Below are positions 19,662 through 35,929 of a DNA stretch of 54,244 nt, in pieces. The stretch covers positions 1 to 54,244 of the IMG/VR virus record IMGVR_UViG_3300025646_000052; one strand, 5' to 3'. The stretch is from a virus (lineage: Duplodnaviria; Caudoviricetes). Within the stretch, counting starts at the first letter, position 1; each line of letters opens with the position of its first letter. The notes under the pieces are model-generated. The model ran no database searches, had not been told where the DNA came from, and saw nothing but the letters and a program-made list of their open reading frames with translations. Both the position numbers and the translations under genes were made by a program.

Positions 19662-20393
19662 ATGACATCAAACCATCACAACGATGAGGTTTTCGTCGAG
19701 AAACGAAGACCCAAAGGTCCTATTAAATTTAAAATCCAATTAAATGAAGAACAAAAAGAAGCAAAAGCAAAAATATTAAACAATACAGTTACATTATTAG
19801 CTGGTTCAGCTGGTTCAGGTAAGACATTATTAGCATGTCAAATCGCATTAGAAAAATTATTTACGAAAGAATGCGATAAAATTATTATTACACGTCCTAC
19901 GGTGAGTAAGGAAGAAATCGGGTTCCTCCCCGGTGATCTCCGCGAAAAAATGGACCCATGGGTCCAGCCTATATACCAAAATATGTACACTCTGTACGAT
20001 AAAACAAAAATTGAAAAACTTATATCAGATGGACAGATCGAAATTGTTCCAGTATCTTTTATGCGTGGTAGAACTTTTCTCGATAGTGTGGTTATTGTGG
20101 ACGAAGCTCAAAACGTAACCCACGAACAAATGGAAATGATTGTTACTAGAATTGGTTTACGTAGTAAAATGATTATATGTGGAGACGATCACCAAGTAGA
20201 CTTAAAGCGTAAAGCTGATTCTGGATTTAGATTTTTATACTCAGCTGCACGTAAAGTAAAAAATATGTGTGCTATATCACTTAAAACTAATCATAGAGAT
20301 TCTATTGTAGAAGATTTAATTAATTTATACGAGGAAGCAGCCGAGCAAGGTATAGTATTAGGCACATCAGGTTCTAGTGGAAAAAATAAATAA
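19662..20393 (+). CDS. phoH: PhoH-family ATPase
   Basis: GSAGSGKT, ITRP, IGFLPGDLREKMDPW, FMRGRTF, VDEAQN, GDDHQVDL, NHR. Confidence 0.95.
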   Translation: MTSNHHNDEVFVEKRRPKGPIKFKIQLNEEQKEAKAKILNNTVTLLAGSAGSGKTLLACQIALEKLFTKECDKIIITRPTVSKEEIGFLPGDLREKMDPWVQPIYQNMYTLYDKTKIEKLISDGQIEIVPVSFMRGRTFLDSVVIVDEAQNVTHEQMEMIVTRIGLRSKMIICGDDHQVDLKRKADSGFRFLYSAARKVKNMCAISLKTNHRDSIVEDLINLYEEAAEQGIVLGTSGSSGKNK

Positions 20394-20426: not shown

Positions 20427-21605
20427 ATGGCAAACATCCCAATATATAATGGTGAACAAACTTGGGCTTCAGGTATAACTCCTTTTGGGTTTTACGATTC
20501 TGATTCTGAATTCCAAGCAGATGCTTTAAAAGTAACTAAATTTTGTGCTATTCGTTTAGGATATCCTATTGAAAACGTAGAACTACAGTCTGGCTCTTTC
20601 TTTACAGCGTTTGAAGAAGCTGTAACTGTATATGGCAATGAATTATATGCATATAAACAAAGAGAGGATTATTTATCTATTGAAGGAGCTGGAAAATCTT
20701 ATGGAGGAACTGATACAGATTTATCATCTTCATTAATTACCCCTAACATGGGTAATGTTATTCGCTTATCAGAACAATATGGTGAAGAAGCTGGAGTAGG
20801 AGGAAATACTAATTGGTATAGTGGATCTGTTGTTTTAACAGCTGGTGTTCAAGATTATGATTTAAATGAATGGGCTATAAACTCAGGTAGCCTTTCAGGA
20901 AGTGAACTTGAAGTAAAACGTGTTTATTTTAATGGTATTCCTGCTTCTGCTAATTATTATTATGGTGCTCCTGGATTTGGTTTAGGAGTAGGATTTGGTG
21001 GATTTTTAGGAGCATATGGTTTTACTGCTTACAACACAGCGTACTCTACTTTAGTAATGCCTGTAGCTTATGATATAGCAGCTATTCAAGAATTAGAAAT
21101 GTCTAACACAGTTAGAATGTCTAGCTATAGCTTTGAATTAATAAATAATAGACTTAGAATTTTCCCAATCCCAGGATCTGAGGATAATGGTGCTAATCTT
21201 TGGTTTCAATATTTAAATAAGACTGAAAGATTAAATAATTCATTCACTACAGGAAGTAATATTATTACTAATATCTCTCAGGTGCCTTACAGAAATATTT
21301 CTTATTCTCAAGTTAACTCTGTAGGTAGAATGTGGATTTTTGAATATACTTTAGCCTTATCTAAAGAAATGTTAGGTTTAGTTAGAAACAAATATTCAAC
21401 TATCCCTATCCCTGGAGCTGAAGTAACATTAAATGGTGGAGAATTAACAAGTCAAGCTGCTGCTGAAAAAAATGCTTTAGTTGAAAGATTAAGAATATAT
21501 TTTGACGAAACTTCTCGTAGATCTTTACTTGAAAGAAAATCAAATGAATCTACCTTTGCCCAAGAAGAGTTAAATAAAGTTCCAATGACAATATTTGTAG
21601 GATAA
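20427..21605 (+). CDS. Neck protein (T4 gp13-like head-tail adaptor)
   Basis: RLGYPIENVEL at the N-terminus; WIFEYTLALSKEMLG..R.KY...PG..VTLNG; position after the capsid gene. Confidence 0.8.
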   Translation: MANIPIYNGEQTWASGITPFGFYDSDSEFQADALKVTKFCAIRLGYPIENVELQSGSFFTAFEEAVTVYGNELYAYKQREDYLSIEGAGKSYGGTDTDLSSSLITPNMGNVIRLSEQYGEEAGVGGNTNWYSGSVVLTAGVQDYDLNEWAINSGSLSGSELEVKRVYFNGIPASANYYYGAPGFGLGVGFGGFLGAYGFTAYNTAYSTLVMPVAYDIAAIQELEMSNTVRMSSYSFELINNRLRIFPIPGSEDNGANLWFQYLNKTERLNNSFTTGSNIITNISQVPYRNISYSQVNSVGRMWIFEYTLALSKEMLGLVRNKYSTIPIPGAEVTLNGGELTSQAAAEKNALVERLRIYFDETSRRSLLERKSNESTFAQEELNKVPMTIFVG

Positions 21606-21606: not shown

Positions 21607-22152
21607 ATGGCATTATACGGTGAAGCACGTGATATAAGTCTATTTAGACATGTAAATAGAGAATTGATGCACAACATCATTTCTCAACAATGTGTTTTGT
21701 ACAAATATGATATTGAAGAAACTAAAGTAAATATTTACGGTGAATCTTCTACTGACAAATACTATCATCCCCCAATTTTATTATACTGCTTAATAGACAT
21801 CCCAGACCAATTATATAGTGTTAATGACATTAATATAGATTATACTTGGAACCCAACATTTAGATTTTTAAGAGACGATTTATTATCTGTATCTGCTGAA
21901 AATCCTAATGGAGCTAATGTAGTTCCTGAAGTAGGTGATATTATTATGTTCCAAGAAGCTTATTATGAAGTAGACACTATAGACCAAAGCAACTTCTTCG
22001 TAGGTAAAGATCCAGATTACCCATTTACTGATGATAATGGTAATAATCCTTTAGAAACTGATTTAGATAGATTTGGATATAATGTTGGAATTATTTGTTC
22101 TACTCACTATGTACCTGCTGATAAAGTTGGTATAACTAAAGAAAGAATGTAA
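21607..22152 (+). CDS. Neck/head-closure protein (T4 gp14-like)
   Basis: NIYGES, PEVGDII..YYEV; synteny. Confidence 0.7.
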   Translation: MALYGEARDISLFRHVNRELMHNIISQQCVLYKYDIEETKVNIYGESSTDKYYHPPILLYCLIDIPDQLYSVNDINIDYTWNPTFRFLRDDLLSVSAENPNGANVVPEVGDIIMFQEAYYEVDTIDQSNFFVGKDPDYPFTDDNGNNPLETDLDRFGYNVGIICSTHYVPADKVGITKERM

Positions 22153-23099
22153 TGGCTACTACTGGAAGAAAACCTATACCAAAAACCCAAAAAGAAATAT
22201 CTATTGGGAAACATACTGCAATTGATAAAGAACAAGGTAACCCTAATTTTTCAGGTCGTTCTAATAGAGGTACTCAAAAATCAGCACAAGGAGAAACTAC
22301 TAAACCTTTAACTATTGGCATTCAAGATATTGATGAAGCAGTATTTTATTATTTTCAAAACATTATTCGTCCTTCTGTAGTACAAAACGGAAATAAAATT
22401 GAAGTTCCTGTATTATATGGTGCTCCTGAAAAATGGAAAGCTATTCAAAAGGATGGATATTATCGAGATAAAAATGGAGCTATTATGCTTCCTGTTATTG
22501 TAATTAAAAGAGATACTATTGAAAAAAATAGAACTATAGCTAATAAATTAGACGCTAATAACCCTAATAATTTTGCAGTTGTAAGTACAACTTGGAATAA
22601 AGATAATTATTATTCTAAATTTAATGTATTAAACAATAGAATCCCTACTAAAACTTATTTTACTACTGTAGTCCCAGATTATGTAACTTTAGACTATAGT
22701 TGTTTAATTCAAACCTATTATATAGATCAACTTAATAAAATAGTTGAGGCTATAAATTATGCTTCTGATGCATATTGGGGAGACCCACAACGTTTTCAAT
22801 TTAGAGCAATGATTGATTCTTTTGCTACTCCTACCGAACTTGTTCAGGATAATAATAGAGTAGTTAGAGCTAATTTTAATATAAGACTTAATGGGTATTT
22901 AATTCCTGATGTAATCCAAAAAAATGGAGTAAATTTTCCACAGTTTTCTGAGCGTTCTAAAATTTTATTTTCAATGGAAACTGTAAGTGATCCTGGTATA
23001 TTCATTGGAAACCAAAATTCAGATGGTAGAATAGAAACTCCAACACCTCAAGAATTAGAAGCACAAAAAAGAGTTAATAAAAGTACTTTAGTACCTTAA
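22152..23099 (+). CDS. Tail terminator/sheath stabiliser (T4 gp15-like)
   Basis: VPVLYGAPEKW, LPVI, VPDYVTLDY, QLNKIVEAI; synteny. Confidence 0.7.
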   Translation: MATTGRKPIPKTQKEISIGKHTAIDKEQGNPNFSGRSNRGTQKSAQGETTKPLTIGIQDIDEAVFYYFQNIIRPSVVQNGNKIEVPVLYGAPEKWKAIQKDGYYRDKNGAIMLPVIVIKRDTIEKNRTIANKLDANNPNNFAVVSTTWNKDNYYSKFNVLNNRIPTKTYFTTVVPDYVTLDYSCLIQTYYIDQLNKIVEAINYASDAYWGDPQRFQFRAMIDSFATPTELVQDNNRVVRANFNIRLNGYLIPDVIQKNGVNFPQFSERSKILFSMETVSDPGIFIGNQNSDGRIETPTPQELEAQKRVNKSTLVP

Positions 23100-23117
23100 T
23101 TTTTATTGTTTAAATCT

Positions 23118-23126
23118 ATATTTATT
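23118..23126 (+). promoter_or_regulatory. Putative late promoter motif ATATTTATT
   Basis: Intergenic, before giant repeat gene 1. Confidence 0.55.
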
Positions 23127-23144
23127 AGATATACCTGAGATCAA

Positions 23145-26100
23145 ATGGCAAATATAAGATATCTAGACCAAGTAACAGTTGGCCCTTCCGTAACTTCTAT
23201 TAGTGGTGAATCCACTACTTCTGGCACATCTGGAACCGCAGGTTCTTCAGGCACAACTGGCTCATCTGGAACATCAGGATATTCAGGTTCTGCAGGTACT
23301 TCAGGTATTACTGGATCTTCAGGTCAATCAGGTTCTACTTCAGGAACATCAGGCTCTGGTGGTTCTTCAGGTACTTCAGGTGCCGTAGGTTCTTCAGGCG
23401 AATCTAGTACATCCGGCTCTTCAGGCGAATCAGGCACTTCAGGCACTTCAGGCTCTTCAGGCGAATCAGGTACTTCAGGCTCTTCAGGCGAATTTGGAAC
23501 ATCAGGTTCATCAGGAAGTTCAGGTTCATCAGGTAGTTTAGGTTCTTCAGGTAGTTCAGGTTCATCAGGTTCAAGTGGTTCTTCAGGTTCATCAGGTTCA
23601 AGCGGAACATCAGGTTTAAGCGGTTTTTCAGGTAGTTCAGGTTCATCAGGTAGTTCAGGTTCTTCAGGTAGTTCAGGTTCAAGTGGTTCATCAGGAAGTT
23701 CAGGTTCATCAGGTAGTTCAGGTTCATCAGGTAGTTCAGGTTCATCAGGTTCAAGTGGAGCTGATGGCTCTTCAGGTGAATCTGGTACTTCAGGTTCATC
23801 AGGAGTTGCTGGCTCATCCGGTACTTCAGGTTCATCAGGTTCAAATGGTTCATCTGGCACTTCAGGCGAATCTGGCACTTCAGGTTTAAGTGGATCTACA
23901 GGTTCAAACGGTACCTCAGGTAACACTGGTACCTCAGGTCAATCCGCTCAATCTTCAACATCAGGCTCTTCCGGCTCTTCAGGTACTACTGGCTCAACAG
24001 GAGCTGCAGGTACATCAGGCGAAGCTGCAACTTCAGGTTCAGCAGGTTCATCTGGTACAAATGGTACAAGTGGAAATTTAGGCTCATCAGGAGCCTCAGC
24101 TCAATCAGGCACTTCAGGCTCATCAGGTACAGTAGGTTCAACCGGAGCTGCGGGTACATCAGGTTTATCTGGTTCATCTGGTTCATCTGGTTCAACAGGA
24201 GAATCAGGTACTAGTGGAATTTCAGGTACTTCAGGCGAATCTAATTCTTCAGGAACTAATGGTTCTTCAGGCAATAGTGGTACATCTGGTGAATCCGGTA
24301 CATCAGGTTCAGCTGGCTCTTCAGGTACTATAGGCTCAAGTGGTACAGGTGCAGGCTCAGGTTCATCAGGTACTTCAGGTTCTTCAGGTGAATCTGCAAC
24401 TTCAGGTTCATCAGGCTCTTCAGGTTTAGCTGGCACATCAGGAGCTTTAGGTTCAAGCGGAGAATCAGCCCAATCAGGTACCTCAGGCTCTACAGGTTCA
24501 AACGGTACTTCAGGTAACACAGGAACATCTGGTCAATCAGCTCAATCTTCAACATCAGGCTCTTCAGGTTCTTCAGGTACTACTGGTTCAACTGGAGCTT
24601 CAGGTACATCAGGTGAATCTGGCACTTCAGGTTTATCAGGCTCTACAGGTTCAAACGGTACTTCAGGTAACACAGGTACTTCAGGTCAATCTGCTCAATC
24701 TTCAACATCAGGTTCTTCAGGTTCTTCAGGTACTACTGGCTCATCTGGTGAGTCTGGCACATCAGGTGAATCTGGCACTTCAGGTTTATCAGGTTCAACT
24801 GGTTCAAATGGTACCTCAGGTAACACAGGAACATCTGGTCAATCAGCTCAATCTTCAACTTCAGGTTCATCTGGTTCTTCAGGCACAACTGGCTCATCTG
24901 GTGAGTCTGGCACATCAGGTGAATCTGGATCTTCTGGTACTTCAGGTTCAACAGGTGAATCTGGTACCTCAGGTAATAATGCTACTTCAGGTTTATCAGG
25001 TTCATCAGGTACAGTAGGTTCAACAGGAGAATCAGGTACTTCAGGTGAATCAGGTACATCAGGTTCAGCTGGATCTTCAGGTACTATAGGTTCAAGTGGT
25101 ACAGGAGCTGGTGCTGGTACTTCAGGTGAATCTGGTTCATCAGGTGAATCTGCAACTTCAGGCTCAGCAGGCTCTTCAGGCTCAGCTGGTACATCAGGAG
25201 ATTTAGGATCATCAGGAGCATCAGCTCAATCAGGAACTTCAGGCTCTACAGGCTCAAATGGTACCTCAGGTAACACAGGAACATCTGGTCAATCAGCTCA
25301 ATCTTCAACTTCAGGTTCTTCTGGTACTTCAGGTACTACAGGTTCAACTGGCATAGCAAGTACTTCAGGTGAAGCTGGATCTTCAGGTTCATCAGGTTCT
25401 TCTGGTACCCAAGGTTCTACAGGAGCCGCAGGTACTTCAGGCGAATCTACTACATCTGGTACTTCAGGCTCTTCAGGTACAGTAGGTTCAACCGGAGCTG
25501 CTGGTACTTCAGGAGAAGCAGCCACATCTGGTACTTCAGGTTCTTCAGGTACTATAGGTTCAAGTGGTACAGGAGCTGGTGCTGGTACTTCAGGTGAATC
25601 TGGTTCATCAGGTGAATCTGCAACTTCAGGCTCTTCAGGTTCATCTGGTACAAACGGTACCTCAGGTAATATAGGATCATCAGGAGCATCAGCTCAATCA
25701 GGAACTTCAGGTTCTACTGGTTCAAACGGTACTTCAGGTAATACAGGCACTTCAGGCCAATCTGCCCAATCAGGCACATCAGGTAGCTCAGGCTCATCTG
25801 GAACTACAGGTTCAACAGGAGCTGCAGGTACTTCAGGCGAAGCTGCTACATCAGGCTCATCAGGCTCTTCTGGTACTCAAGGCTCAACAGGAGCCGCAGG
25901 TACTTCAGGCGAATCTACTACATCAGGCACTTCAGGTTCTTCGGGCACAGTAGGTTCAACTGGAGCTGCTGGTACTTCAGGAGAAGCAGCTACATCAGGC
26001 TCTTCAGGATCTTCAGGTACTATAGGTTCAAGTGGTACAGGTGCAGGCTCAGGTACATCAGGTATTTCAGGTTCTTCAGGTGAATCTGCAACTTCAGGTT

Positions 26101-29100
26101 CATCAGGTTCCACTGGTACAAATGGTACAAGTGGAAATGTAGGTTCATCAGGAGCTTCAGCTCAATCAGGTACTTCAGGCTCTACAGGCTCAAATGGTAC
26201 CTCAGGCAATACAGGCACCTCAGGTCAATCTGCTCAATCTTCAACATCAGGCTCTTCAGGTTCTTCAGGTACTACAGGTTCAACTGGTGCTGCGGGCACA
26301 TCAGGAGATAGTGCTACTTCAGGTTCTAGTGGTTCATCAGGTACTCAAGGTTCAACCGGAGCTGCTGGTACTTCAGGTGAAGCCTCTACATCTGGTACTT
26401 CAGGTTCATCAGGTACTCAAGGTTCAACCGGAGCTGCTGGTACTTCAGGAGAAGCAGCTACATCAGGCTCTTCAGGATCTTCTGGTACTCAAGGCTCAAC
26501 AGGAGCCGCAGGTACTTCAGGTGATAGTTTAACTTCTGGTACTTCAGGCTCTTCCGGTACAGTAGGCTCAACAGGAGCTGCAGGCACTTCCGGTGACAGC
26601 TCTACTTCAGGTTCATCAGGTACTACAGGTTCAACTGGTACTAGTGGTGTAGGTTCAGGTTCAGGATCTTCAGGCGAATCAGGAACAAGTGGTTCTTCTG
26701 GTTTAGCAGGAACTTCAGGTTCTACAGGCTCAAATGGTACTTCAGGTAATAATGGTACTTCAGGATTATCTAATACTTCAGGTTCGTCTGGTTCTACAGG
26801 TTCAAACGGTACTTCAGGTAATAACGGTACATCAGGTGCATCAGCTACTAGCGGATCTTCAGGTTCCACTGGTACAAATGGTACAAGTGGAAATGTAGGT
26901 TCATCAGGAGCTTCAGCTCAATCAGGTACCTCAGGCTCTACAGGTTCAAATGGTACTTCAGGTAACACGGGTACTTCAGGTCAATCTGCTCAATCATCAA
27001 CTTCAGGTTCATCAGGTACGTCTGGTACCACTGGTTCAACTGGAGCCGCAGGTACTTCAGGCGAATCTACTACATCTGGATCTTCAGGCTCTTCAGGTAC
27101 TCAAGGTTCTACAGGAGCTGCAGGCACATCAGGCGCTTCAGCTACTAGTGGATCCTCAGGTTCAACTGGTACAAATGGTACTTCAGGAAACGTTGGTACT
27201 TCAGGAGCATCTGCACTTTCAGGTTCATCAGGTTCAACTGGTTCGAATGGTACCTCAGGTAATACGGGTACTTCTGGTCAATCTGCTCAATCTTCAACAT
27301 CAGGCTCTTCAGGTTCATCTGGTACTACAGGCTCAACTGGAGCTGCAGGTACATCAGGCGCATCAGCTACTAGCGGATCTTCAGGTTCTACTGGTACAAA
27401 TGGTACTACAGGTAACGCCGGAACTGCAGGTCAATCAGGCTTAAGCAAATCTTCAGGAACAAGTGGTTCATCTGGTACTACAGGTTCAACCGGAGCAGCT
27501 GGTAGTAGTAATTTAAGTGCCACGTCAGGTACTTCAGGCTCATCAGGTACTCAAGGTTCAACAGGAAACGCCGGTACTTCAGGCGAAGCTGCTACATCAG
27601 GTTCATCAGGTTCAACTGGTACAAATGGTACTTCAGGAAACGCTGGTACTTCAGGATTATCAGCACTTTCAGGTTCATCAGGTTCAACAGGTACAAACGG
27701 TACTACTGGTAATGCAGGTACTGCAGGTCAATCAGGTTTAAGTAAATCTTCAGGTACCTCAGGTTCATCTGGTACTACAGGTTCTGCTGGTGCTGCTGGT
27801 CAATCTAATTTAAGTGCAACTTCAGGTACTTCAGGCTCATCAGGTACTCAAGGTTCAACAGGAAACGCCGGTACTTCAGGCGAAGCTGCTACATCAGGTT
27901 CAAGTGGTTCCACAGGTTCAAACGGTACCTCAGGCAATAATGGCACATCAGGTGCATCAGCTACTAGCGGATCTTCAGGTTCAACAGGTACAAACGGTAC
28001 TACTGGTAATGCAGGTACTGCTGGACAATCAGGTTTAAGTAAATCTTCAGGAACAAGTGGTTCATCTGGTACTACTGGTTCAGCTGGAGCAGCTGGCGGT
28101 AGTAATTTAAGTGCTACATCAGGTACTTCAGGTTCATCAGGTACTCAAGGCTCAACAGGAGCAGCTGGTACTTCAGGTGCGGCTACTACATCAGGTTCAA
28201 GTGGTTCTACTGGTTCAAACGGTACTTCAGGTAATAATAGCACATCAGGCGCATCAGCTACTAGCGGATCTTCAGGTTCTACTGGTACAAATGGTACTAC
28301 AGGTAACGCCGGAACTGCAGGTCAATCAGGCTTAAGCAAATCTTCAGGCACCTCAGGTTCATCTGGTACTACTGGTTCAATAGGAGCGGCAGGTCAATCT
28401 AACTTAAGTGCTTCTTCAGGCACTTCAGGCTCATCAGGCACAACTGGTTCAGCAGGTAATGCTGGTGGTAGCAATTTAAGTGCTACATCAGGTACTTCAG
28501 GTTCATCTGGTACTACAGGTTCTGCTGGTGCTGCTGGTCAATCTAATTTAAGTGCAACTTCAGGTACAAGTGGCTCAACAGGTACAAATGGTACTTCAGG
28601 CAATGCTGGTAACTCAGGTAACTCAGGCACTTCAGGCACTTCAGGCACTACAGGTTCAAATGGTAACTCAGGTAATGCTGGTAACTCTGGTAATTCTGGT
28701 ACTTCAGGTACCTCAGGAACTAATGGTTCAAATGGTAACGCCGGTAATTCAGGTAATTCTGCTACATCAGGTACAAGCGGTTCTACTGGTACTAATGGCT
28801 CAAATGGTAATAATGGAGGTTCAGGTTTAAGCAGGACATCAGGTTCATCAGGCTCATCAGGTACAAATGGTACTTCAGGTAATAATGGTACTGCAGGTGC
28901 TAGTGCTAATTCAGGCACAAGTGGATCAACCGGTACAAACGGTACTACTGGTAACGCAGGCACAGCTGGACAATCAGGCTTAAGTAAATCTTCCGGTACT
29001 TCAGGTTCATCTGGTACTACTGGTTCAGCAGGAGCTGCTGGTGGTAGTAATTTAAGTGCTACTTCAGGCACTTCAGGTTCATCTGGTACTACAGGCTCAA

Positions 29101-31688
29101 ACGGTAATAATGGTGGTTCAGGAATAAGCCGGACATCAGGTTCATCAGGTTCAACTGGTACAAATGGTACTTCAGGTAATAATGGTACTGCAGGTTCAAG
29201 TAGAACTTCAGGAAGTTCTGGTACAACTGGTTCCAATGGTACTTCAGGTAACAATGGTAACGCCGGCAATTCAGGTAATTCAGCTACTTCAGGCACTTCA
29301 GGCACTTCAGGTTCAAATGGTAATGCTGGAGCAGCAGGATCTTCTAACGTAAGTGCCACTTCAGGAACTTCTGGTACAAATGGTTCAAACGGTGCTGCTG
29401 GTAATGCTGGTTCATCTAACGTAAGTAATACATCAGGTACTTCAGGATCGAATGGCACATCAGGTAACTCAGGCAATGCAGGTAATTCAGGATTAAGCCG
29501 GACTTCTGGTACAAGTGGTTCAACAGGTACAAACGGTACTTCAGGAGCTAATGGAAACTCTGGTAATAGTGGTAACTCAGGTACTTCAGGTACAAATGGT
29601 TCAAGTGGTAACAATGGTAATGCTGGTAACTCAGGCAACTCAGGTACTTCAGGTACTTCAGGTACAAATGGTTCTAGTGGTAATGCCGGAGCAGCTGGCT
29701 CATCTAACATAAGTGCTACTTCAGGAACTTCAGGTACAAATGGTTCAACCGGAGCTGCCGGTAATGCTGGTTCATCCAACGTAAGTGCTACTTCAGGAAC
29801 CTCAGGCTCAAATGGTACTTCAGGTAACTCAGGAAACGCTGGTAACTCAGGATTAAGCCGTACTTCAGGAACCTCAGGTTCAACTGGTACTAATGGTACC
29901 TCAGGTAACAACGGTAACGCAGGCAATTCAGGTAACTCAGGTACTTCAGGTACAAATGGTTCAAGTGGTAACAATGGTAATGCTGGTAACTCAGGTAACT
30001 CAGGTACTTCAGGTACAAATGGTTCAAGTGGTAACTCAGGTAACTCAGGTAATTCTGGTAATTCAGGTACATCTGGTACTAATGGTTCAAACGGAGCTAA
30101 TGGTAACGCAGGCAATTCAGGTTTAAGCAGAACCTCAGGTACCACAGGTTCAAATGGTACCTCAGGTAACAATGGAGTCAATGGTAACTCAGGCAACTCA
30201 GGCAACTCAGGAACTTCTGGTACTAATGGTTCAACTGGTAACTCAGGCAACTCAGGCAACTCTGGTAATTCAGGTACATCTGGTACAAACGGTACTTCAG
30301 GTAATAATGGAGCTAGTGGCAACTCAGGCAACTCAGGCGTATCAGGAACAAATGGCACAACTGGTTCAAACGGTACCTCAGGTAATAATGGAGCTAACGG
30401 AAACTCAGGTAATTCAGGAGTTTCAGGTACAAATGGTACTAATGGTTCAAACGGTGCTAATGGTAATAACGGTAACTCAGGATTAAGCCGGACTTCAGGT
30501 ACTTCAGGTTCATCTGGTACAAATGGTAATAGTGGTAACACTGGAGCTTCTGGCATAAGCCGTACTTCAGGTACTAATGGCTCAAACGGTACCTCAGGTA
30601 ACAATGGTAACTCAGGCAACTCAGGTAACTCAGGTACTTCAGGCACAACAGGTTCATCAGGCAACTCAGGTAACTCAGGTAACTCAGGTAACTCAGGTAA
30701 CTCTGGAACTAATGGTACTTCTGGAACCTCAGGTGCTTCTTCAGGTTCTTCAGGTACTAGCCGGACTTCAGGTACAAGTGGTACAAATGGTACTTCAGGT
30801 GCTTCAGCTACTACTTCAGGTACTAGTGGTAACTCAACAGGCAAAACTTCAGGAACTTCAGGTACAAATGGTACCTCTGGTAACAATGGTAATGCAGGTA
30901 ACTCAGGTAACTCAGCAGTTTCAGGAAATTCAGGCACATCTGGTAGTAATGGTACTAATGGCAACAACGGTAACTCAGGCAACTCTGGTAATTCAGGTAC
31001 ATCTGGTACAACTGGTTCAAGTGGTACTTCAGGTGCTAATGGTAACGCAGGTGGTTCAGGCAGTTCACGCTCATCAGGTACTTCAGGTACAAATGGTACA
31101 AGTGGTATCTCAGGTAATGTAGGTACAGCAGGTACTTATGTATCAATTACAGCCGGTTCTGGTCTATCAGGTGGTGGTTCATTGATTACTGACCGGACTA
31201 TATCACTCCAAGATGACTTAAGAGGTGAAGCTTGGTATATTGGTAGAGATACTAATGATTATATCCACGTTAACACTACTCAAATTGAATTCTACTTAGA
31301 TGGTAACTTAGATGCCTTAATTCAAAATGATGGTGATTTCCACGCTGACGGTGACGTAATTGCTTACTCTACTACAACTTCAGATAGAAGATTAAAAGAC
31401 AATATCACAACTATTGAAAACGCTTTAGATAAAGTTACTAAACTTAGAGGTGTTGAATATGATTGGAATGCGGGTGGTAGAAAAGGACAACATGACTTAG
31501 GTGTAATAGCCCAAGAAGTTGAAGAAATTATCCCTCACATTGTAAGAGAAAAAGAACTTAAAGTAGGAGAGTATAAAAACAACCCTCAAATAGTTAAAAC
31601 TGTTGATTATGAAAAATTAACTGCAGTATTAATAGAAGCAGTTAAAGAACTTAAAACACAGCTTGATGAATTAAAAAATAGTAAATAA
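23145..31688 (+). CDS. Giant Gly-X-Y Ser/Thr/Asn-rich fibre protein with C-terminal peptidase S74-type intramolecular chaperone
   Basis: 2847 aa; about 2640 aa of triplet periodicity (GSS/GTS/GNS); fibre motif AGSGLSGGGSLITDRT; SDRRLKDNI...GVIAQEV...VDYEKL..VLIEAVKEL at 31380-31688. Confidence 0.85.
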   Translation: MANIRYLDQVTVGPSVTSISGESTTSGTSGTAGSSGTTGSSGTSGYSGSAGTSGITGSSGQSGSTSGTSGSGGSSGTSGAVGSSGESSTSGSSGESGTSGTSGSSGESGTSGSSGEFGTSGSSGSSGSSGSLGSSGSSGSSGSSGSSGSSGSSGTSGLSGFSGSSGSSGSSGSSGSSGSSGSSGSSGSSGSSGSSGSSGSSGSSGADGSSGESGTSGSSGVAGSSGTSGSSGSNGSSGTSGESGTSGLSGSTGSNGTSGNTGTSGQSAQSSTSGSSGSSGTTGSTGAAGTSGEAATSGSAGSSGTNGTSGNLGSSGASAQSGTSGSSGTVGSTGAAGTSGLSGSSGSSGSTGESGTSGISGTSGESNSSGTNGSSGNSGTSGESGTSGSAGSSGTIGSSGTGAGSGSSGTSGSSGESATSGSSGSSGLAGTSGALGSSGESAQSGTSGSTGSNGTSGNTGTSGQSAQSSTSGSSGSSGTTGSTGASGTSGESGTSGLSGSTGSNGTSGNTGTSGQSAQSSTSGSSGSSGTTGSSGESGTSGESGTSGLSGSTGSNGTSGNTGTSGQSAQSSTSGSSGSSGTTGSSGESGTSGESGSSGTSGSTGESGTSGNNATSGLSGSSGTVGSTGESGTSGESGTSGSAGSSGTIGSSGTGAGAGTSGESGSSGESATSGSAGSSGSAGTSGDLGSSGASAQSGTSGSTGSNGTSGNTGTSGQSAQSSTSGSSGTSGTTGSTGIASTSGEAGSSGSSGSSGTQGSTGAAGTSGESTTSGTSGSSGTVGSTGAAGTSGEAATSGTSGSSGTIGSSGTGAGAGTSGESGSSGESATSGSSGSSGTNGTSGNIGSSGASAQSGTSGSTGSNGTSGNTGTSGQSAQSGTSGSSGSSGTTGSTGAAGTSGEAATSGSSGSSGTQGSTGAAGTSGESTTSGTSGSSGTVGSTGAAGTSGEAATSGSSGSSGTIGSSGTGAGSGTSGISGSSGESATSGSSGSTGTNGTSGNVGSSGASAQSGTSGSTGSNGTSGNTGTSGQSAQSSTSGSSGSSGTTGSTGAAGTSGDSATSGSSGSSGTQGSTGAAGTSGEASTSGTSGSSGTQGSTGAAGTSGEAATSGSSGSSGTQGSTGAAGTSGDSLTSGTSGSSGTVGSTGAAGTSGDSSTSGSSGTTGSTGTSGVGSGSGSSGESGTSGSSGLAGTSGSTGSNGTSGNNGTSGLSNTSGSSGSTGSNGTSGNNGTSGASATSGSSGSTGTNGTSGNVGSSGASAQSGTSGSTGSNGTSGNTGTSGQSAQSSTSGSSGTSGTTGSTGAAGTSGESTTSGSSGSSGTQGSTGAAGTSGASATSGSSGSTGTNGTSGNVGTSGASALSGSSGSTGSNGTSGNTGTSGQSAQSSTSGSSGSSGTTGSTGAAGTSGASATSGSSGSTGTNGTTGNAGTAGQSGLSKSSGTSGSSGTTGSTGAAGSSNLSATSGTSGSSGTQGSTGNAGTSGEAATSGSSGSTGTNGTSGNAGTSGLSALSGSSGSTGTNGTTGNAGTAGQSGLSKSSGTSGSSGTTGSAGAAGQSNLSATSGTSGSSGTQGSTGNAGTSGEAATSGSSGSTGSNGTSGNNGTSGASATSGSSGSTGTNGTTGNAGTAGQSGLSKSSGTSGSSGTTGSAGAAGGSNLSATSGTSGSSGTQGSTGAAGTSGAATTSGSSGSTGSNGTSGNNSTSGASATSGSSGSTGTNGTTGNAGTAGQSGLSKSSGTSGSSGTTGSIGAAGQSNLSASSGTSGSSGTTGSAGNAGGSNLSATSGTSGSSGTTGSAGAAGQSNLSATSGTSGSTGTNGTSGNAGNSGNSGTSGTSGTTGSNGNSGNAGNSGNSGTSGTSGTNGSNGNAGNSGNSATSGTSGSTGTNGSNGNNGGSGLSRTSGSSGSSGTNGTSGNNGTAGASANSGTSGSTGTNGTTGNAGTAGQSGLSKSSGTSGSSGTTGSAGAAGGSNLSATSGTSGSSGTTGSNGNNGGSGISRTSGSSGSTGTNGTSGNNGTAGSSRTSGSSGTTGSNGTSGNNGNAGNSGNSATSGTSGTSGSNGNAGAAGSSNVSATSGTSGTNGSNGAAGNAGSSNVSNTSGTSGSNGTSGNSGNAGNSGLSRTSGTSGSTGTNGTSGANGNSGNSGNSGTSGTNGSSGNNGNAGNSGNSGTSGTSGTNGSSGNAGAAGSSNISATSGTSGTNGSTGAAGNAGSSNVSATSGTSGSNGTSGNSGNAGNSGLSRTSGTSGSTGTNGTSGNNGNAGNSGNSGTSGTNGSSGNNGNAGNSGNSGTSGTNGSSGNSGNSGNSGNSGTSGTNGSNGANGNAGNSGLSRTSGTTGSNGTSGNNGVNGNSGNSGNSGTSGTNGSTGNSGNSGNSGNSGTSGTNGTSGNNGASGNSGNSGVSGTNGTTGSNGTSGNNGANGNSGNSGVSGTNGTNGSNGANGNNGNSGLSRTSGTSGSSGTNGNSGNTGASGISRTSGTNGSNGTSGNNGNSGNSGNSGTSGTTGSSGNSGNSGNSGNSGNSGTNGTSGTSGASSGSSGTSRTSGTSGTNGTSGASATTSGTSGNSTGKTSGTSGTNGTSGNNGNAGNSGNSAVSGNSGTSGSNGTNGNNGNSGNSGNSGTSGTTGSSGTSGANGNAGGSGSSRSSGTSGTNGTSGISGNVGTAGTYVSITAGSGLSGGGSLITDRTISLQDDLRGEAWYIGRDTNDYIHVNTTQIEFYLDGNLDALIQNDGDFHADGDVIAYSTTTSDRRLKDNITTIENALDKVTKLRGVEYDWNAGGRKGQHDLGVIAQEVEEIIPHIVREKELKVGEYKNNPQIVKTVDYEKLTAVLIEAVKELKTQLDELKNSK
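23220..31140 (+). repeat. Coding 9-nt periodic low-complexity array with higher-order units (153, 297, 468 nt)
   Basis: Recurring GGTTCATCA/GGTACTTCA/GGTAACTCA. Near-identical blocks start at 24615/24768, 25081/25549/26017 and 27517/27814/28111. Confidence 0.9.
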
Positions 31689-31711
31689 ATTAAAATTCAT
31701 CTTATATAGTT

Positions 31712-31733
31712 AAAGGGGTGTATGCCCCTTTTT
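31712..31733 (+). terminator. Rho-independent terminator
   Basis: AAAGGGGT-GTAT-GCCCCTTT plus T-run. Confidence 0.7.
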
Positions 31734-31751
31734 CTATTCATAGACCCTAAA

Positions 31752-31760
31752 ATATTTATT
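31752..31760 (+). promoter_or_regulatory. Putative late promoter motif ATATTTATT
   Basis: After a terminator, before giant repeat gene 2. Confidence 0.55.
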
Positions 31761-31786
31761 ACAAAACACGGGAATTCCTCTATATA

Positions 31787-34700
31787 ATGGGTGAAAATAA
31801 AAGATATACTGTCCAGAAAAAACAAGACTCAGGTCAAGATAATAAGGTTATAAATGACCTATTTTTACTATCAGTTCCCACTGGTTCTGTTGAAGACTAT
31901 GCTTTAGTAATTAATCCTAATTCAAAGCAAGTTAGATACGTTATAGGAGGAGTAAGTGGTGGTGGAGGTGGAAGCAGTAGTGGTAGCTCAGGAGGTTCCA
32001 CATCAGGTAGTGCAGGCACCTCAGGCTCATCTGGTAGATCATCAGGTACTTCAGGTTCATCTGGCTCTACAGGTAAAACAGGTAGTTCTGGTATAACAGG
32101 TACTTCAGGTAGTTCAGGAGCATCAAGTGGCTCTTCAGGTTCTTCTGGTTCATCGGGTTCAACAGGTTCATCGGGTTCTTCAGGCTCAACAGGTTCATCA
32201 GGCAACTCAGGTAACTCCGGTTTAAGCCGCTCTGCAGGCTCATCTGGTTCTTCGGGTTCATCAGGTACTTCTGGTGTAGGTGGCTTATCAGGCACTTCAG
32301 GCTCATCTGGCTCTTCAGGCTCAGCCGGTTCTACTGGTTCTTCTGGTAACTCAGGTAACTCCGGTTTAAGTCGTTCATCAGGTAGTTCAGGCTCCTCAGG
32401 CTCATCAGGTACTTCTGGTGTAGGTGGCTTATCAAGCACTTCAGGCTCATCTGGTTCTTCAGGTTCCTCAGGTTCTTCAGGTAATACAGGTACATCAGGT
32501 TTAAGTCGCTCTTCTGGTTCATCAGGTTCAAGTGGTTCTTCAGGTACTTCAGGTGTAGGAGGATTATCTAGTACCTCAGGCTCATCTGGTTCTTCAGGTT
32601 CCTCAGGTTCTTCAGGTAATACAGGTACATCAGGTTTAAGTCGCTCTTCTGGTTCATCAGGTTCAAGTGGTTCTTCAGGTACTTCAGGTGTAGGTGGGCT
32701 ATCAAGCACTTCAGGCTCCTCAGGCTCATCTGGTTCAGCAGGTTCTTCAGGTAATACAGGTACATCAGGTTTAAGCCGCTCTTCTGGTTCATCAGGTTCA
32801 AGTGGATCATCAGGTACTTCTGGTGTAGGTGGGCTATCAAGCACTTCAGGCTCCTCAGGCTCATCTGGTTCAGCAGGTTCTTCAGGTAATACAGGTACAT
32901 CAGGTTTAAGCCGCTCTTCTGGTTCATCAGGTTCAAGTGGATCATCAGGTACTTCTGGTGTAAATGGTTTATCAAGTACTTCAGGCTCATCAGGCTCAGC
33001 AGGTTCAACAGGCTCATCAGGTAACTCAGGTAACTCAGGTTTAAGCCGCTCTTCTGGTTCATCAGGTTCAAGTGGATCATCAGGTACTTCTGGTGTAGGT
33101 GGTTTATCTGGTACTTCTGGCTCATCAGGTTCGTCTGGTTCAGCAGGTTCTACTGGTTCTTCTGGTAACTCAGGTAACTCAGGTTTAAGCCGTTCAGCAG
33201 GTAGTTCAGGCTCCTCAGGCTCATCAGGTACTTCTGGTGTAGGTGGGCTATCAGGTACCTCAGGCTCATCAGGCTCAGCAGGTTCAACAGGCTCATCAGG
33301 TAACTCAGGTAACTCAGGTTTAAGTCGTTCAGCAGGTTCATCTGGTTCTTCGGGCTCATCAGGTACTTCTGGTGTAGGTGGTTTATCTGGTACTTCTGGC
33401 TTATCAGGTTCGTCTGGTTCAGCAGGTTCTACTGGTTCTTCTGGTAACTCAGGTAACTCAGGTTTAAGCCGTTCATCAGGAACATCTGGTTCTTCAGGTT
33501 CTTCAGGTACTTCAGGCGTAGGAGGATTATCAGGTACTACAGGCTCAAATGGTTCAAGTGGTAATTCAGGTGAGTCTGGTAATTCGGGTACAACTGGTTC
33601 AAATGGATCTAGTGGCAATGCTGGTAACTCAGGTAAAGCAGGTTCTTCAGGTTCATCAGGTAGTTCAGGTTCTTCAGGTACTTCAGGTGTTGGTGGACTA
33701 TCAAGCACTTCAGGCTCTTCAGGTTCTTCAGGATCATCTGGTTCATCAGGTAATACTGGTACTTCTGGTATAAGTCGCTCTTCAGGCTCATCAGGTTCTT
33801 CGGGTTCATCAGGTAATACAGGTACATCAGGTTTAAGCCAGAGCTCAGGTTCTTCAGGTAGTTCAGGTTCATCAGGTAATACAGGTAACTCCGGTTTAAG
33901 TCGTTCAGCAGGTTCATCTGGTTCTTCGGGCTCATCAGGTACTTCTGGTGTAGGTGGTTTATCTGGTACTTCTGGCTCATCAGGTTCGTCTGGTTCAGCA
34001 GGTTCTACTGGCTCCTCTGGTAACTCAGGTAAAGCAGGTTTAAGCCGTTCATCAGGAACATCTGGTTCTTCAGGTTCAGCAGGTAATACAGGTACATCAG
34101 GTTTAAGCCAGAGCTCAGGTTCTTCAGGTAGTTCAGGTTCATCAGGTAATACAGGTACATCAGGTTTAAGCCAGAGCTCAGGTTCTTCAGGTAGTTCAGG
34201 TTCATCAGGTACTTCAGGCGTAGGAGGATTATCAGGTACTACTGGCTCAAATGGATCTAGTGGCAACTCAGGCAACTCAGGCAATTCAGGTACTACTGGC
34301 TCAAATGGATCTAGTGGTAACTCAGGTAACTCAGGTAAGTCTGGATCATCAGGTTCATCTGGTACAAGTGGATCAAGTGGTACTTCAGGTGTAAGTGGTC
34401 TTTCAGCGGTTTCAGGTACTACAGGTTCTTCTGGCTCAGCAGGTGCTACAGGTAACTCAGGAAAATCAGGTCAATCTGGTACAACAGGTTCTAATGGTTC
34501 AAGTGGTAATTCCGGTAACTCAGGTAACTCAGGTAATTCAGGTACTACTGGTTCAAATGGTTCAAGCGGTAACTCAGGTAACTCAGGTAACTCAGGTACA
34601 ACAGGTTCCAATGGCTCAAGTGGCAACTCAGGTAACTCAGGTAATTCAGGTACTACTGGTTCAAACGGCTCAAATGGTAATTCTGGTAATTCCGGCAACT

Positions 34701-35746
34701 CAGGCAAGTCTGGATCATCAGGTTCATCAGGAACTTCAGGTTCATCAGGAACATCAGGTGTAAGTGGCCTTTCAGCTGTTTCAGGTACTACAGGTTCTTC
34801 TGGCTCAGCAGGTGCTACAGGTAACTCAGGAAAATCTGGTAATTCAGGCACAACAGGTTCAAACGGCTCAAATGGTAATGCCGGTAACTCAGGTAACTCA
34901 GGCAACTCAGGTACTACAGGCTCTAATGGTTCAAGCGGTAACAATGGTAACTCAGGTAACTCAGGCAACTCAGGTACTACAGGCTCTAATGGTTCAAGCG
35001 GTAACAATGGTAACTCAGGTAAATCAGGCAATTCAGGAACTACAGGTTCAAATGGATCTAGTGGTAACGCTGGTAATTCTGGCCCTAGTGGTTCTTCAGG
35101 TAGTTCAGGTACAGCAGGTAAAGCTGGATCATCAGGTAGTTCTGGCACTTCAGGTGTATCTGGTATTTCAGGTAATATAGGTACAGCAGGTACTTACGTA
35201 TCTATAGTAGCAGGTACGGGTTTAAATGGAGGAGGATCATTAAGTACTGATAGAACTGTAAACGTAAACTGGGCAGGTTCTACTGTAGGTGGTATTACAA
35301 CTTATGGTAAATCTGGAGATCCTACGGTTTATTCTAATTTTTATTATGATACTACTAATGGTAATGTTGTATTAACTGGTAGCACTTTCTTAGCAGTTAA
35401 TTACACAGCAGCCCCACTTCACCATGTAACAGTTTCAGGTTCAATATCTATTACAGGATCTAACGTACCCGCAGCTTCTTTAAGATTCCAAGATACAGGA
35501 GGAACTTCTCGTAATGCTTTATATGTTAATAGTACAAACTATTTAGAAGTAGGTAACCAATTTTATACAGGTTTAAAGTTAATTCATAGTGGATCTTATG
35601 GTAGTGCTTATACTCCTGGTGGTAGAAATGGAGTTAGTGATATTATTGGAGCAACAGCTGATGATAATGTATTAGGTACCCCAGATAGCTGGTTAGCCGT
35701 TAGAGTAGGAGCAACAGACTATGTAATTCCAATGTATACAGCATGA
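31787..35746 (+). CDS. Second Gly-X-Y Ser-rich fibre-like protein
   Basis: 1319 aa; about 1070 aa of GSS/GTS/GNS triplets; AGTGLNGGGSLSTDRT junction; beta-rich tip ending WLAVRVGATDYVIPMYTA. Confidence 0.8.
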   Translation: MGENKRYTVQKKQDSGQDNKVINDLFLLSVPTGSVEDYALVINPNSKQVRYVIGGVSGGGGGSSSGSSGGSTSGSAGTSGSSGRSSGTSGSSGSTGKTGSSGITGTSGSSGASSGSSGSSGSSGSTGSSGSSGSTGSSGNSGNSGLSRSAGSSGSSGSSGTSGVGGLSGTSGSSGSSGSAGSTGSSGNSGNSGLSRSSGSSGSSGSSGTSGVGGLSSTSGSSGSSGSSGSSGNTGTSGLSRSSGSSGSSGSSGTSGVGGLSSTSGSSGSSGSSGSSGNTGTSGLSRSSGSSGSSGSSGTSGVGGLSSTSGSSGSSGSAGSSGNTGTSGLSRSSGSSGSSGSSGTSGVGGLSSTSGSSGSSGSAGSSGNTGTSGLSRSSGSSGSSGSSGTSGVNGLSSTSGSSGSAGSTGSSGNSGNSGLSRSSGSSGSSGSSGTSGVGGLSGTSGSSGSSGSAGSTGSSGNSGNSGLSRSAGSSGSSGSSGTSGVGGLSGTSGSSGSAGSTGSSGNSGNSGLSRSAGSSGSSGSSGTSGVGGLSGTSGLSGSSGSAGSTGSSGNSGNSGLSRSSGTSGSSGSSGTSGVGGLSGTTGSNGSSGNSGESGNSGTTGSNGSSGNAGNSGKAGSSGSSGSSGSSGTSGVGGLSSTSGSSGSSGSSGSSGNTGTSGISRSSGSSGSSGSSGNTGTSGLSQSSGSSGSSGSSGNTGNSGLSRSAGSSGSSGSSGTSGVGGLSGTSGSSGSSGSAGSTGSSGNSGKAGLSRSSGTSGSSGSAGNTGTSGLSQSSGSSGSSGSSGNTGTSGLSQSSGSSGSSGSSGTSGVGGLSGTTGSNGSSGNSGNSGNSGTTGSNGSSGNSGNSGKSGSSGSSGTSGSSGTSGVSGLSAVSGTTGSSGSAGATGNSGKSGQSGTTGSNGSSGNSGNSGNSGNSGTTGSNGSSGNSGNSGNSGTTGSNGSSGNSGNSGNSGTTGSNGSNGNSGNSGNSGKSGSSGSSGTSGSSGTSGVSGLSAVSGTTGSSGSAGATGNSGKSGNSGTTGSNGSNGNAGNSGNSGNSGTTGSNGSSGNNGNSGNSGNSGTTGSNGSSGNNGNSGKSGNSGTTGSNGSSGNAGNSGPSGSSGSSGTAGKAGSSGSSGTSGVSGISGNIGTAGTYVSIVAGTGLNGGGSLSTDRTVNVNWAGSTVGGITTYGKSGDPTVYSNFYYDTTNGNVVLTGSTFLAVNYTAAPLHHVTVSGSISITGSNVPAASLRFQDTGGTSRNALYVNSTNYLEVGNQFYTGLKLIHSGSYGSAYTPGGRNGVSDIIGATADDNVLGTPDSWLAVRVGATDYVIPMYTA
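31975..35190 (+). repeat. Coding 9-nt periodic array including four 135-nt tandem units
   Basis: GTAATACAGGTACATCAGGTTTAAG recurs at 32481, 32616, 32751 and 32886. Confidence 0.9.
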
Positions 35747-35895
35747 TACCTTTAACCCCTGAATTAGAAAATAAAATAAAAGCTAGTGGAGGTAATATTC
35801 ATTATGTTACTTTAGAAGAATTTCAACAAATATTATCTAAGGGAACACTTTTATCTAAAGAAGAAGGATTAAAACAACTTGGCAAATCAAAATAA
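35743..35895 (+). CDS. Unannotated 50-aa protein
   Basis: MIPLTPELENKIKASGGNIHYVTLEEFQQILSKGTLLSKEEGLKQLGKSK; ATGA overlap with the fibre 2 stop; fills the intergenic gap. Confidence 0.65.
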   Translation: MIPLTPELENKIKASGGNIHYVTLEEFQQILSKGTLLSKEEGLKQLGKSK

Positions 35896-35907: not shown

Positions 35908-35929
35908 AGTTATAAACTAAAACAAGTCT

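Follow-up and report, generated by a model that had tools for sequence, protein, structure and literature searches.

A giant fibre gene with a proline-free collagen-like repeat and a neighbouring TibC-like glycosyltransferase gene in a predicted freshwater myovirus

Results and Discussion

A giant gene encoding a proline-free Gly-X-Y repeat

We describe here a stretch of 54,244 nucleotides (nt), referred to throughout as the window, which is the entire IMG/VR virus record IMGVR_UViG_3300025646_000052, a linear sequence with a CheckV completeness of 36%, and the giant collagen-like fibre gene that it contains. The gene is an open reading frame (ORF) on the plus strand (23145-31688) that begins with ATG and encodes 2847 amino acids (aa), and it is followed by a second collagen-like gene and three predicted glycosyltransferase genes. 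From its N-terminus onwards, the product has a 20-residue peptide, a collagen-like shaft, a short non-collagen tip, and a Peptidase_S74 domain.

The shaft (aa 21-2665; 23205-31139, plus strand) consists of 879 in-phase Gly-X-Y triplets in one reading phase, with glycine at the first position in 776 of them and only four phase shifts. This agrees with an initial annotation, made from the sequence alone, which described a repeat of about 2640 aa with glycine at nearly every third position and no proline; the protein as a whole contains three prolines (aa 14, 2797, and 2814), and none of these is in the shaft. The 103 triplets that lack glycine start with Ala (53), Ser (14), Asn (14), Arg (10), Thr (6), Lys (5), or Leu (1). 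The annotation had listed Ala, Ser, Lys, and Arg as the glycine replacements and all four are present, but the substitutions by Asn and Thr had gone unmentioned. The best-phase glycine fraction is 0.824 compared with a maximum of 0.347 in 1000 residue shuffles, and the Pfam Collagen model (PF01391) matches the giant protein over 34 stretches with an E-value (E) of 2.5e-259. Glycine accounts for 811 of the 2847 residues (28%), which is close to one per triplet. The imino-acid content typical of characterised collagens, although not strictly defining of them, is not found in the giant shaft.

The X and Y positions of the triplets are strongly unlike in composition, suggesting a structural or enzymatic constraint on each position. 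Threonine occupies X in 322 of the 879 triplets (37%), followed by Ser (253) and Asn (118), whereas Y is Ser in 565 (64%), with Thr (96), Asn (93), and Ala (87) well behind. Perfect runs of glycine triplets are most commonly seven triplets long (41 of 86 runs), which is also the median, and the longest extends for 59; the seven-triplet runs give a 24-aa module composed of seven glycine triplets and one non-glycine triplet, and the shaft is for the most part made up of such modules. Internal repeats in the DNA have periods of 72-468 nt with 61-84% match, and because all of the periods are multiples of 9 nt, the conservation of phase is in part a legacy of duplication.

The N-terminal 20 aa (23145-23204, plus strand) constitute a putative virion-attachment peptide, the first ten residues of which are conserved as MA-x-x-R-[YF]-LDQV, with M1, A2, R5, L7, D8, Q9, and V10 invariant in all five of the sequences aligned (the window and the related contigs G001-G004). 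At the other end, the shaft gives way to a non-collagen tip or stalk of 80 aa (aa 2666-2745; 31140-31379, plus strand) through a junction motif that is common to the second fibre, and the mature fibre would end with this short segment once a predicted cleavage had taken place. The final segment (aa 2746-2847 together with the stop codon; 31380-31688, plus strand) is a predicted Peptidase_S74 intramolecular chaperone, in which PF13884 matches aa 2746-2800 over model positions 1-57 of 58 (E 1.8e-17, 63.8 bits versus a cutoff of 22). The serine and lysine of S74 domains are spaced as Ser-x4-Lys. An SDRRLK motif that had been placed at 31380 in the initial annotation starts exactly there, at aa 2746, and supplies Ser2746 and Lys2751 as the residue pair for autocleavage; a conserved Ser and Lys are both required for this reaction according to PMC7824862.

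For the final 208 aa there are matches to 45 PHROG families, and among those listed, 21 of 25 are tail fiber, long tail fiber, or baseplate-wedge families; the best of them, PHROG 5668 'tail fiber protein' (phrog_5668, E 3.9e-37), spans both the tip and the S74 domain. Of the giant S74 proteins recovered via the C-terminal region, the 120 that are most similar (1565-4983 aa) include none that is collagen-like, and an S74 domain on a collagen shaft is unusual among its closest S74 relatives.

A second fibre and three glycosyltransferase genes

The second collagen-like gene (31787-35746, plus strand) encodes a 1319-aa fibre with 364 triplets, Ser at 266 of the Y positions, and a single proline within the repeat. 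It is without S74 and has a C-terminal domain of approximately 180 aa, joined to the shaft by the same junction motif as in the giant fibre. This type of tip recurs in three relatives (L010, L032, and L034). An AlphaFold2 (AF2) prediction of the C-terminal 185 aa from the single sequence has a predicted local distance difference test score (pLDDT) of 32.9, too low for a usable model of the tip, and its PHROG match is marginal (E 0.0033). The giant and second fibres could be separate, or joined end to end.

The G+C fraction is 0.45-0.48 in the two collagen-like genes (24001-35000) and about 0.30-0.36 elsewhere; the difference is accounted for by the codons for Gly, Ser, and Thr and gives no sign of foreign origin. 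Two antisense ORFs lie inside the collagen-like genes, one of 814 aa (28538-30982, minus strand) and one of 795 aa (31897-34284, minus strand), and these most likely result from the repetitive pattern of codons and are not genes. A terminator-like hairpin (31712-31731, plus strand), a consensus match only, is positioned 24 nt past the stop codon of the giant gene. Only two terminator-like sites are present in the region 22900-41200, versus a mean of 8.9 in shuffled sequences, and promoter-like sites are in no excess (46 versus a shuffle mean of 45.7).

Downstream of the fibres are the three predicted glycosyltransferase genes, all on the plus strand, the second and third of which each overlap the previous gene by 4 nt. 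The first (35930-38632) encodes a 900-aa protein with a GT4 domain (Glycos_transf_1, PF00534; aa 165-294, E 1e-11) and a weak GT25-like stretch (aa 733-791; PF01755, E 3e-4, under the cutoff); orthologues of 885-905 aa are present in G001-G004, and a search of the PDB with this protein returned nothing. The second (38629-39579) encodes a 316-aa GT4-like glycosyltransferase (PF00534, E 6e-7) with orthologues of 314-319 aa in all five related contigs. The third (39576-40775) encodes a 399-aa homologue of the TibC/Aah-family protein O-heptosyltransferases.

This third protein scores 326.5 bits (E 2e-97) against NCBIfam TIGR04414, 'autotransporter strand-loop-strand O-heptosyltransferase', for which the equivalog cutoff is 200, whereas the best of the lipopolysaccharide (LPS) heptosyltransferase models reaches 46.1 bits versus a cutoff of 467. 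Pfam reports GT9 and a weak match to the TibC N-terminal domain, and TibC (4RB4/4RAP) is the only PDB match even at E <= 10 (E 1e-58, aa 29-394 aligned with 27-385). In the HMMER alignment to 4RAP the catalytic base Asp110 and the sugar-binding residues Lys230, Arg286, and Trp305 are identical, the fourth sugar-binding residue, Thr226, is replaced by Ser, and the iron-finger cysteines Cys339, Cys342, Cys358, and Cys370 are all aligned, the roles of the TibC residues being taken from PMC4358343. As judged from its sequence, the 399-aa protein is a true member of the TibC/Aah family.

The fibre and the TibC-like gene are linked in related phages

We examined the DNA between the TibC-like gene and a gene for a T4 gp15-like tail terminator, which is immediately 5' of the giant gene, in five related contigs (G001-G005). 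In G001-G004 the giant ORF is directly 3' of the gp15-like gene and encodes 4661, 2269, 2732, and 3709 aa respectively, and in G005 two smaller ORFs precede the orthologue at this locus, which encodes 4333 aa. Those of G001 and G002 have S74 at the C-terminus, those of G003 and G004 have a different C-terminal domain, and that of G005 has another; G004 also encodes a second collagen-like protein of 1467 aa. The five orthologues have zero to two prolines at X and Y over 601-1284 triplets, and Ser at 53-63% of the Y positions. At least five unrelated types of C-terminal tip are present at the related loci, joined to the shaft by a common junction motif. An anchor that stays constant, a shaft that varies in length, and tips that can be exchanged are together the hallmark of a receptor-binding fibre.

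In addition to its giant orthologue, G005 (L093/L094) has three Pro-rich collagen-like genes between the gp15-like gene and the transferases. These are paralogous, with products of 837-1011 aa that have 60-80 prolines each and similar N-termini, and Pro-poor and Pro-rich styles of collagen are thus found together in one genome.

The association between enzyme and fibre extends beyond these five contigs. A pattern search of IMG/VR gave 237 hits, 223 of which encode TibC-like relatives, and the best 80 (62-83% identity) were kept. Of the 38 loci with at least 5 kb of sequence upstream of the TibC-like gene, 33 have a collagen-like ORF on that side and on its strand, as do 25 of the 27 with at least 8 kb, and such an ORF is downstream of the TibC-like gene in none of the 80. 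When the enzymes are clustered at 90% identity, 18 of the 20 informative clusters have an upstream collagen-like ORF, and at 98% identity 20 of 24 do so. The exceptions are of two kinds: L031, L056, and L075 contain extra genes and have too little upstream DNA, and L061 and L080 have a different Gly/Ser-rich non-collagen S74 fibre (at least 764 and at least 1430 aa) in the same place.

A 227-aa ORF follows the S74 fibre in L061 and L080, and ORFs of 223-232 aa likewise follow the S74 collagen fibres of G001 and G002; the product of this ORF may be a tip-associated protein.

Relatives of the TibC-like enzyme are present in only four of 50,697 GenBank phage records. In the cultured Microcystis phage Mel-JY01 (L095, PP395634.1), a TibC-like domain with 44% identity forms the C-terminus of a 1226-aa GT4 fusion protein, and a 1016-aa unannotated GTS/GSS collagen-like frame is located about 1.7 kb upstream of that domain. 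This pairing is upstream of the terminase gene, a genomic position unlike that in the window. The 735-kb phage LR756501 has a 699-aa ORF with 40 triplets, 3.6 kb from its TibC relative. Such distant cases lend some independence to the linkage, and because Mel-JY01 is in culture and has the same pairing, the relationship between enzyme and fibre is directly testable.

In the Mel-JY01 record the GT4/TibC-like fusion is annotated as 'methyltransferase FkbM', and a 'cytidylyltransferase-like' gene, a candidate for ADP-heptose synthesis, has only a weak match to PF01467 (E 3.8e-4). The collagen-like frame, which like the fusion is within positions 1-8430, is on the plus strand and runs past the first base of the record, and the minus strand of this part (1-651 and 739-2298) is annotated with Pro/Val/Glu-rich 'hypothetical proteins'; these minus-strand coding sequences look like mirror ORFs of the repeat.

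A proposed structure for the giant fibre

The interpretation that we favour, and which we consider somewhat more probable than not, is that the giant ORF encodes the shaft of a trimeric fibre that is set in register by its S74 domain, O-glycosylated on serine by phage-encoded enzymes, and stabilised by the attached sugars. That glycosylation might stabilise the shaft had been suggested in the initial annotation, and the idea gains support from the presence of three predicted glycosyltransferase genes downstream of the fibres, the last of them in the TibC/Aah family. The accompanying analogy with the galactosyl-threonine of a vent-worm collagen fares less well, as TibC modifies Ser and not Thr, and acts on synthetic peptides, according to PMC4358343, and Ser is at 565 of the 879 Y positions. 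The serine specificity of TibC and the Ser-rich Y position together suggest that Ser-O-heptose or a similar sugar is the likely modification.

In this model trimerisation of the S74 domain would bring the C-termini of the three chains into register, and from there the shaft would zip towards the N-terminus as a collagen-type triple helix or, at a minimum, a three-stranded polyproline-II thread. The S74 domain would then cut itself off at Ser2746 to leave the 80-aa tip, in the manner of a self-removing procollagen C-propeptide. The cytoplasmic TibC-like enzyme would O-glycosylate the exposed Ser side chains of the shaft, and the two other transferases (35930-39579) may extend the glycan. Because the shaft has no imino acids we propose that these sugars would compensate for them, and because virions are assembled in the cytoplasm, a soluble nucleotide-sugar-dependent transferase like TibC would be well suited to a phage.

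The product would be a flexible and heavily hydrated thread of up to about 0.75 um. The collagen rise is quoted as 2.88 A in PMC3368898, and the arithmetic of the length estimate made at the outset is correct for an unbroken helix, in which 879 triplets with a rise of 0.286-0.29 nm per residue would extend for about 0.75 um. The 103 non-glycine triplets would make the thread flexible, however, so that its end-to-end reach is expected to be well under the contour length. The giant fibre and the second collagen-like fibre would probably serve in long-range, reversible capture of the host cell, with the interchangeable tips setting specificity.

A bolder form of the proposal, which we put forward tentatively and lean against rather than towards, is that a widespread clade of aquatic phages makes imino-acid-free 'glyco-collagen' threads on the micrometre scale, registered by a self-cleaving S74 cap and stabilised, in place of (hydroxy)proline, by dense cytoplasmic O-glycosylation of Ser at Y through a phage branch of the TibC/Aah family, with further transferases lengthening the glycan. 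The thread would be about 0.75 um long here, and that of the 4661-aa orthologue as much as about 1.3 um. Without proline the slow step of prolyl isomerisation would be avoided, such that a helix of 2600 residues could zip within the latent period of a phage. Threads several tail lengths long would act as fishing lines, raising the rate of encounter with scarce hosts in dilute water.

Comparison with known systems

Collagen-like motifs in phage fibres have reportedly long been known (the 'bacteriophage collagen' of Smith et al. 1998). The closest parallel is with EPclA and its relatives, encoded by prophage tail-fibre genes of E. coli O157:H7, which likewise are phage Gly-X-Y fibres flanked by trimerisation modules, and for EPclA a triple helix with a melting temperature of 42 C has been shown experimentally (PMC3368898). 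The EPcl collagen domains are short, have Pro at about half of the X positions and many charged residues, and were shown to be unglycosylated in the same study. In contrast, the giant fibre has 879 triplets with no Pro and almost no charge, X and Y are made up of Thr, Ser, Asn, and Ser, and glycosyltransferase genes adjoin it.

Phage K1F endosialidase and the L-shaped tail fibre pb1 of phage T5 are said to be fibres or spikes with S74 intramolecular chaperones. The auto-chaperones of K1F and phi29 are named in PMC3357383. As in other S74 fibres, in which this domain helps the trimer to fold and is then released by self-cleavage, the giant protein has a C-terminal PF13884 domain with the Ser/Lys pair and a predicted mature tip just upstream (compare PMC7824862), but the shafts of known S74 fibres are beta-helical or beta-rich, whereas that of the giant fibre is a Gly-X-Y repeat of 2645 aa.

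The arrangement of enzyme and presumed substrate is similar to that of the bacterial autotransporter heptosyltransferases (BAHT) of E. coli, TibC with TibA and Aah with AIDA-I (PMC4358343), in that the 399-aa protein, a soluble cytoplasmic enzyme like TibC, is encoded beside a Ser/Gly-rich repeat protein. Unlike TibC, however, the presumed substrate is a phage collagen-like fibre and not a beta-helical autotransporter, and the gene is accompanied by two further glycosyltransferase genes and is fused to one in Mel-JY01. The exosporium protein BclA of Bacillus anthracis and the galactosyl-Thr cuticle collagen of Riftia reportedly have hydroxy-amino acids with O-linked sugar at the Y position, and in the Riftia protein the sugar is said to replace hydroxyproline in stabilising the helix. 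Both have Pro at X and Thr at Y, whereas the giant fibre has no Pro, mainly Ser at Y, and a relative of the GT9 heptosyltransferases as its candidate enzyme. Virions of mycobacteriophages are also reported to be glycosylated, on the capsid and tail tube, by phage-encoded glycosyltransferases. In both these phages and the giant viruses, for which glycosylated collagen-like fibrils are described in PMC4691112, a viral enzyme acts on the virus's own surface proteins, as is proposed here, but the enzyme families, targets, and hosts differ.

S74 chaperones and TibC/Aah enzymes have both been well characterised. Our search of the full texts of articles brought up no paper in which a phage enzyme of the TibC type is connected with a collagen-like fibre, nor one on Mel-JY01.

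If the model is correct, it would provide a third route to collagen stabilisation besides hydroxyproline and charge pairs, one that is genetically encoded and operates in the bacterial cytoplasm, and it would be relevant both to collagen biophysics and to recombinant collagen materials. It would also widen phage virion glycosylation from the mycobacteriophages to abundant freshwater and marine myophages, and provide the TibC/Aah enzymes with natural substrates of a second kind. The 'host recognition' glycosyltransferases of aquatic phages, now assumed to modify the host surface, would then need to be read anew, and a fibre several times the length of the tail would bear on how phages find their hosts in dilute waters.

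Observations against the model and alternative interpretations

Several observations weigh against the model of a sugar-stabilised trimeric shaft. Perfect runs of at least ten glycine triplets hold only 312 triplets, and Ser, Thr, and Asn all have low triple-helix propensity in host-guest data. In the 399-aa protein, the beta-hairpin thumb residues Phe265/Val266 that TibC needs for its dodecamer are opposite a gap and the residue Pro300, which determines sugar stereoselectivity, is Gly. A search for phage-encoded ADP-heptose synthesis showed rfaE domain II to be absent from all five of the related records covered, four of which are fragments. The linkage of enzyme and fibre is that of a single clade with inherited synteny, so that 18 of 20 clusters does not amount to 18 independent events, and in the 636-kb phage LR756504 the 20 kb around a TibC relative (36% identity) contain no collagen-like ORF. 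Published work (PMC7029224 and PMC10202952) takes transferases encoded near phage fibre genes to modify either the host surface or DNA. Lastly, the length of the giant gene is based on one short-read assembly, and by our reading a contig ends inside the collagen-like ORF in eight of 33 related loci (L019, L020, L034, L053, L057, L066, L067, and L082). These broken loci show that collagen-like genes are hard to assemble from short reads, and the true distribution of their lengths is probably under-sampled.

The alternative that fares best, although we regard it as unlikely, is that the shaft is not a triple helix but a disordered or single-chain polyproline-II spacer of Ser, Thr, and Asn, mucin-like and either glycosylated or not, which is held by the trimeric tip and the N-terminal anchor and serves as an entropic tether or glycan brush. 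The linkers of mucin-like regions are typically rich in Ser and Thr and heavily glycosylated. The absence of imino acids, the near absence of charged pairs, the dominance of Thr, Ser, Asn, and Ala at X and Y, and the frequency of interruptions, with 103 non-glycine triplets and a median perfect run of seven, would all suit such a spacer. However, a disordered spacer has no need of glycine at each third residue, and here glycine is kept in one phase in 776 of 879 triplets, with four shifts over 2645 aa. Where glycine is replaced it is mostly by the small residues Ala and Ser, and the rule is kept in five orthologues that have diverged in both repeat sequence and length. The strong inequality of the two other positions, with Ser at 64% of Y and Thr at 37% of X, also argues for a constraint, structural or enzymatic, on each.

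Less probable again is an alternative in which the fibre is bare and folds by itself at low water temperature, and the transferases act on a host target, such as an envelope protein, LPS, or other receptor, in defence against superinfection. This is the usual published reading for the host-recognition regions of aquatic myophages (PMC7029224 and PMC10202952), and it is consistent with the TibC relative of LR756504 that has no collagen-like ORF in its vicinity. Against it, the TibC/Aah enzymes modify protein serine in Ser/Gly-rich repeats and are not LPS enzymes (PMC4358343), and the LPS heptosyltransferase models score far lower on the 399-aa protein. The cassette also stays behind the fibre genes when the fibre is swapped, as in L061 and L080, or when the locus is another, as in Mel-JY01, and in the window the transferase genes form part of the late structural module, after the gene for the tail terminator and before that for the sheath.

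An improbable explanation is that the length or internal order of the giant gene is an artefact of assembly, the true gene being shorter or the assembled one a mosaic of population variants. In Logan contigs of four runs (X1, X2, X6, and X12) all 30 bins are covered and none of the contigs spans the giant gene, and when the contigs are placed on it there are hundreds of alternative joints between repeat copies; peaks of Logan depth in the repeats reflect shared words and not copy number. The eight broken loci noted above are also to be expected on this explanation. On the other hand, the repeat copies have diverged to 61-84% match, no exact repeat in the two collagen-like genes exceeds 141 nt, the one of this length being located in the second gene, and only 30 of the 12,476 positions of the two genes are in repeated 127-mers. 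Logan pieces identical to the window are found at five internal places (23814-24151, 26492-26858, 28538-28884, 29646-29957, and ~31072-32216) in both X1 and X2, and two of the five also in X6, these three runs being possibly from one campaign or inclusive of the source sample. The Logan contigs neither confirm nor refute the length of the giant gene. The comparative argument is better, as the five other contigs have intact orthologues of 2269-4661 aa between the same flanking genes, and an 8.5-kb open frame in DNA of 33% G+C is beyond chance.

The alternative offered in the initial annotation, compact polyglycine-II bundles as in the snow-flea antifreeze protein, is very improbable. Repeats folded back on themselves in this way, as also in the gp38 adhesin of phage S16, would form a short thick rod and not a long thread. 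Although every-third glycine and small polar side chains are compatible with such a fold and the 24-aa module could be a hairpin unit, glycine is only 28% of the protein (811 of 2847) where known polyglycine-II bundles are much richer in it, a single phase continues over 2645 aa, the module borders have no recurrent Gly-Gly or Pro turn motifs and are in-phase substitutions of single triplets (for example Ala, Arg, or Lys for Gly), and a C-terminal trimerising chaperone suits a parallel three-chain shaft.

Genomic context

The window is, from its gene content, the structural module of an uncultured freshwater myovirus, with genes for terminase, portal, major capsid protein, gp13-like and gp15-like proteins, sheath, and tube all present. 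The large terminase gene is at 8951-10522 and the portal gene at 10550-12394, followed by those for the major capsid protein (17931-19571) and PhoH (19662-20393). A 392-aa T4 gp13-like neck protein is encoded at 20427-21605 (plus strand), with a match over aa 291-357 to the 'neck protein gp13' of PDB 9mkb/9lu4 (E 1e-5) and to the head-tail adaptor family PHROG 211 (E 1.8e-11). The next gene, in the gp14 position (21607-22152, plus strand), encodes a conserved 181-aa protein with 51-71% identity to counterparts in five related contigs and no match in PHROG, Pfam, or PDB-profile searches.

The gp15-like gene (22152-23099, plus strand) encodes the 315-aa predicted tail terminator. A PDB profile search with this family returned nothing, and the protein was later identified by a fold search. 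An AF2 model was built from a 101-sequence alignment, taken from a profile search with 1261 relatives, and has a pLDDT of 84.8; its best Foldseek match is to the T4 portal-neck-tail complex (9mkb_AB, E 4.4e-9), then to gp15 itself (4hud/4huh, E ~1e-6), with many other neck and terminator proteins among the further matches. The gene is matched in all five of the longer related contigs searched, with 54-59% identity. Genes for the sheath (41085-43205) and tube (43255-43743) lie beyond the transferases.

The baseplate region is at 44-53 kb, and the fibre genes are instead between the tail terminator and the sheath. This location makes attachment of the giant fibre at the neck or collar possible, from gene position alone. 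In Flavobacterium phage immuto the equivalent interval is annotated with 'tail fiber' genes. A fibritin-like neck whisker by homology was considered for the giant protein and rejected; the position alone fits, and the shaft is Gly-X-Y and not coiled coil. The ORF that was initially taken to be an 876-aa tape measure (45294-47924) has no PHROG or Pfam match, which leaves the comparison of the fibre with a tail length derived from it tentative.

Among GenBank phages the nearest capsid protein is that of Flavobacterium phage vB_FspM_immuto (56% identity), followed by those of Microcystis phage Mel-JY01 (49%) and a 484-kb uncultured phage. A megablast search of 20001-45000 against GenBank phages gave no match, and there is no near-identical DNA there. 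Words from the giant gene are found in 22 of 24 listed public runs, and the ten listed runs with at least half of these words are all labelled as freshwater metagenomes from 2017; these ten have six study codes, which could all stem from a single campaign and could cover the source sample as well. A 2025 estuary run contains near-identical pieces of both ends of the giant gene.

The PhoH-like gene lies between the major capsid and neck genes, and a gene of this type has the same position in both immuto and Mel-JY01. Further upstream, 5' of the terminase gene, the segment 5000-7566 contains an FAD/NAD oxidoreductase-like gene, a cupin gene, and an AAA_28 kinase-like gene.

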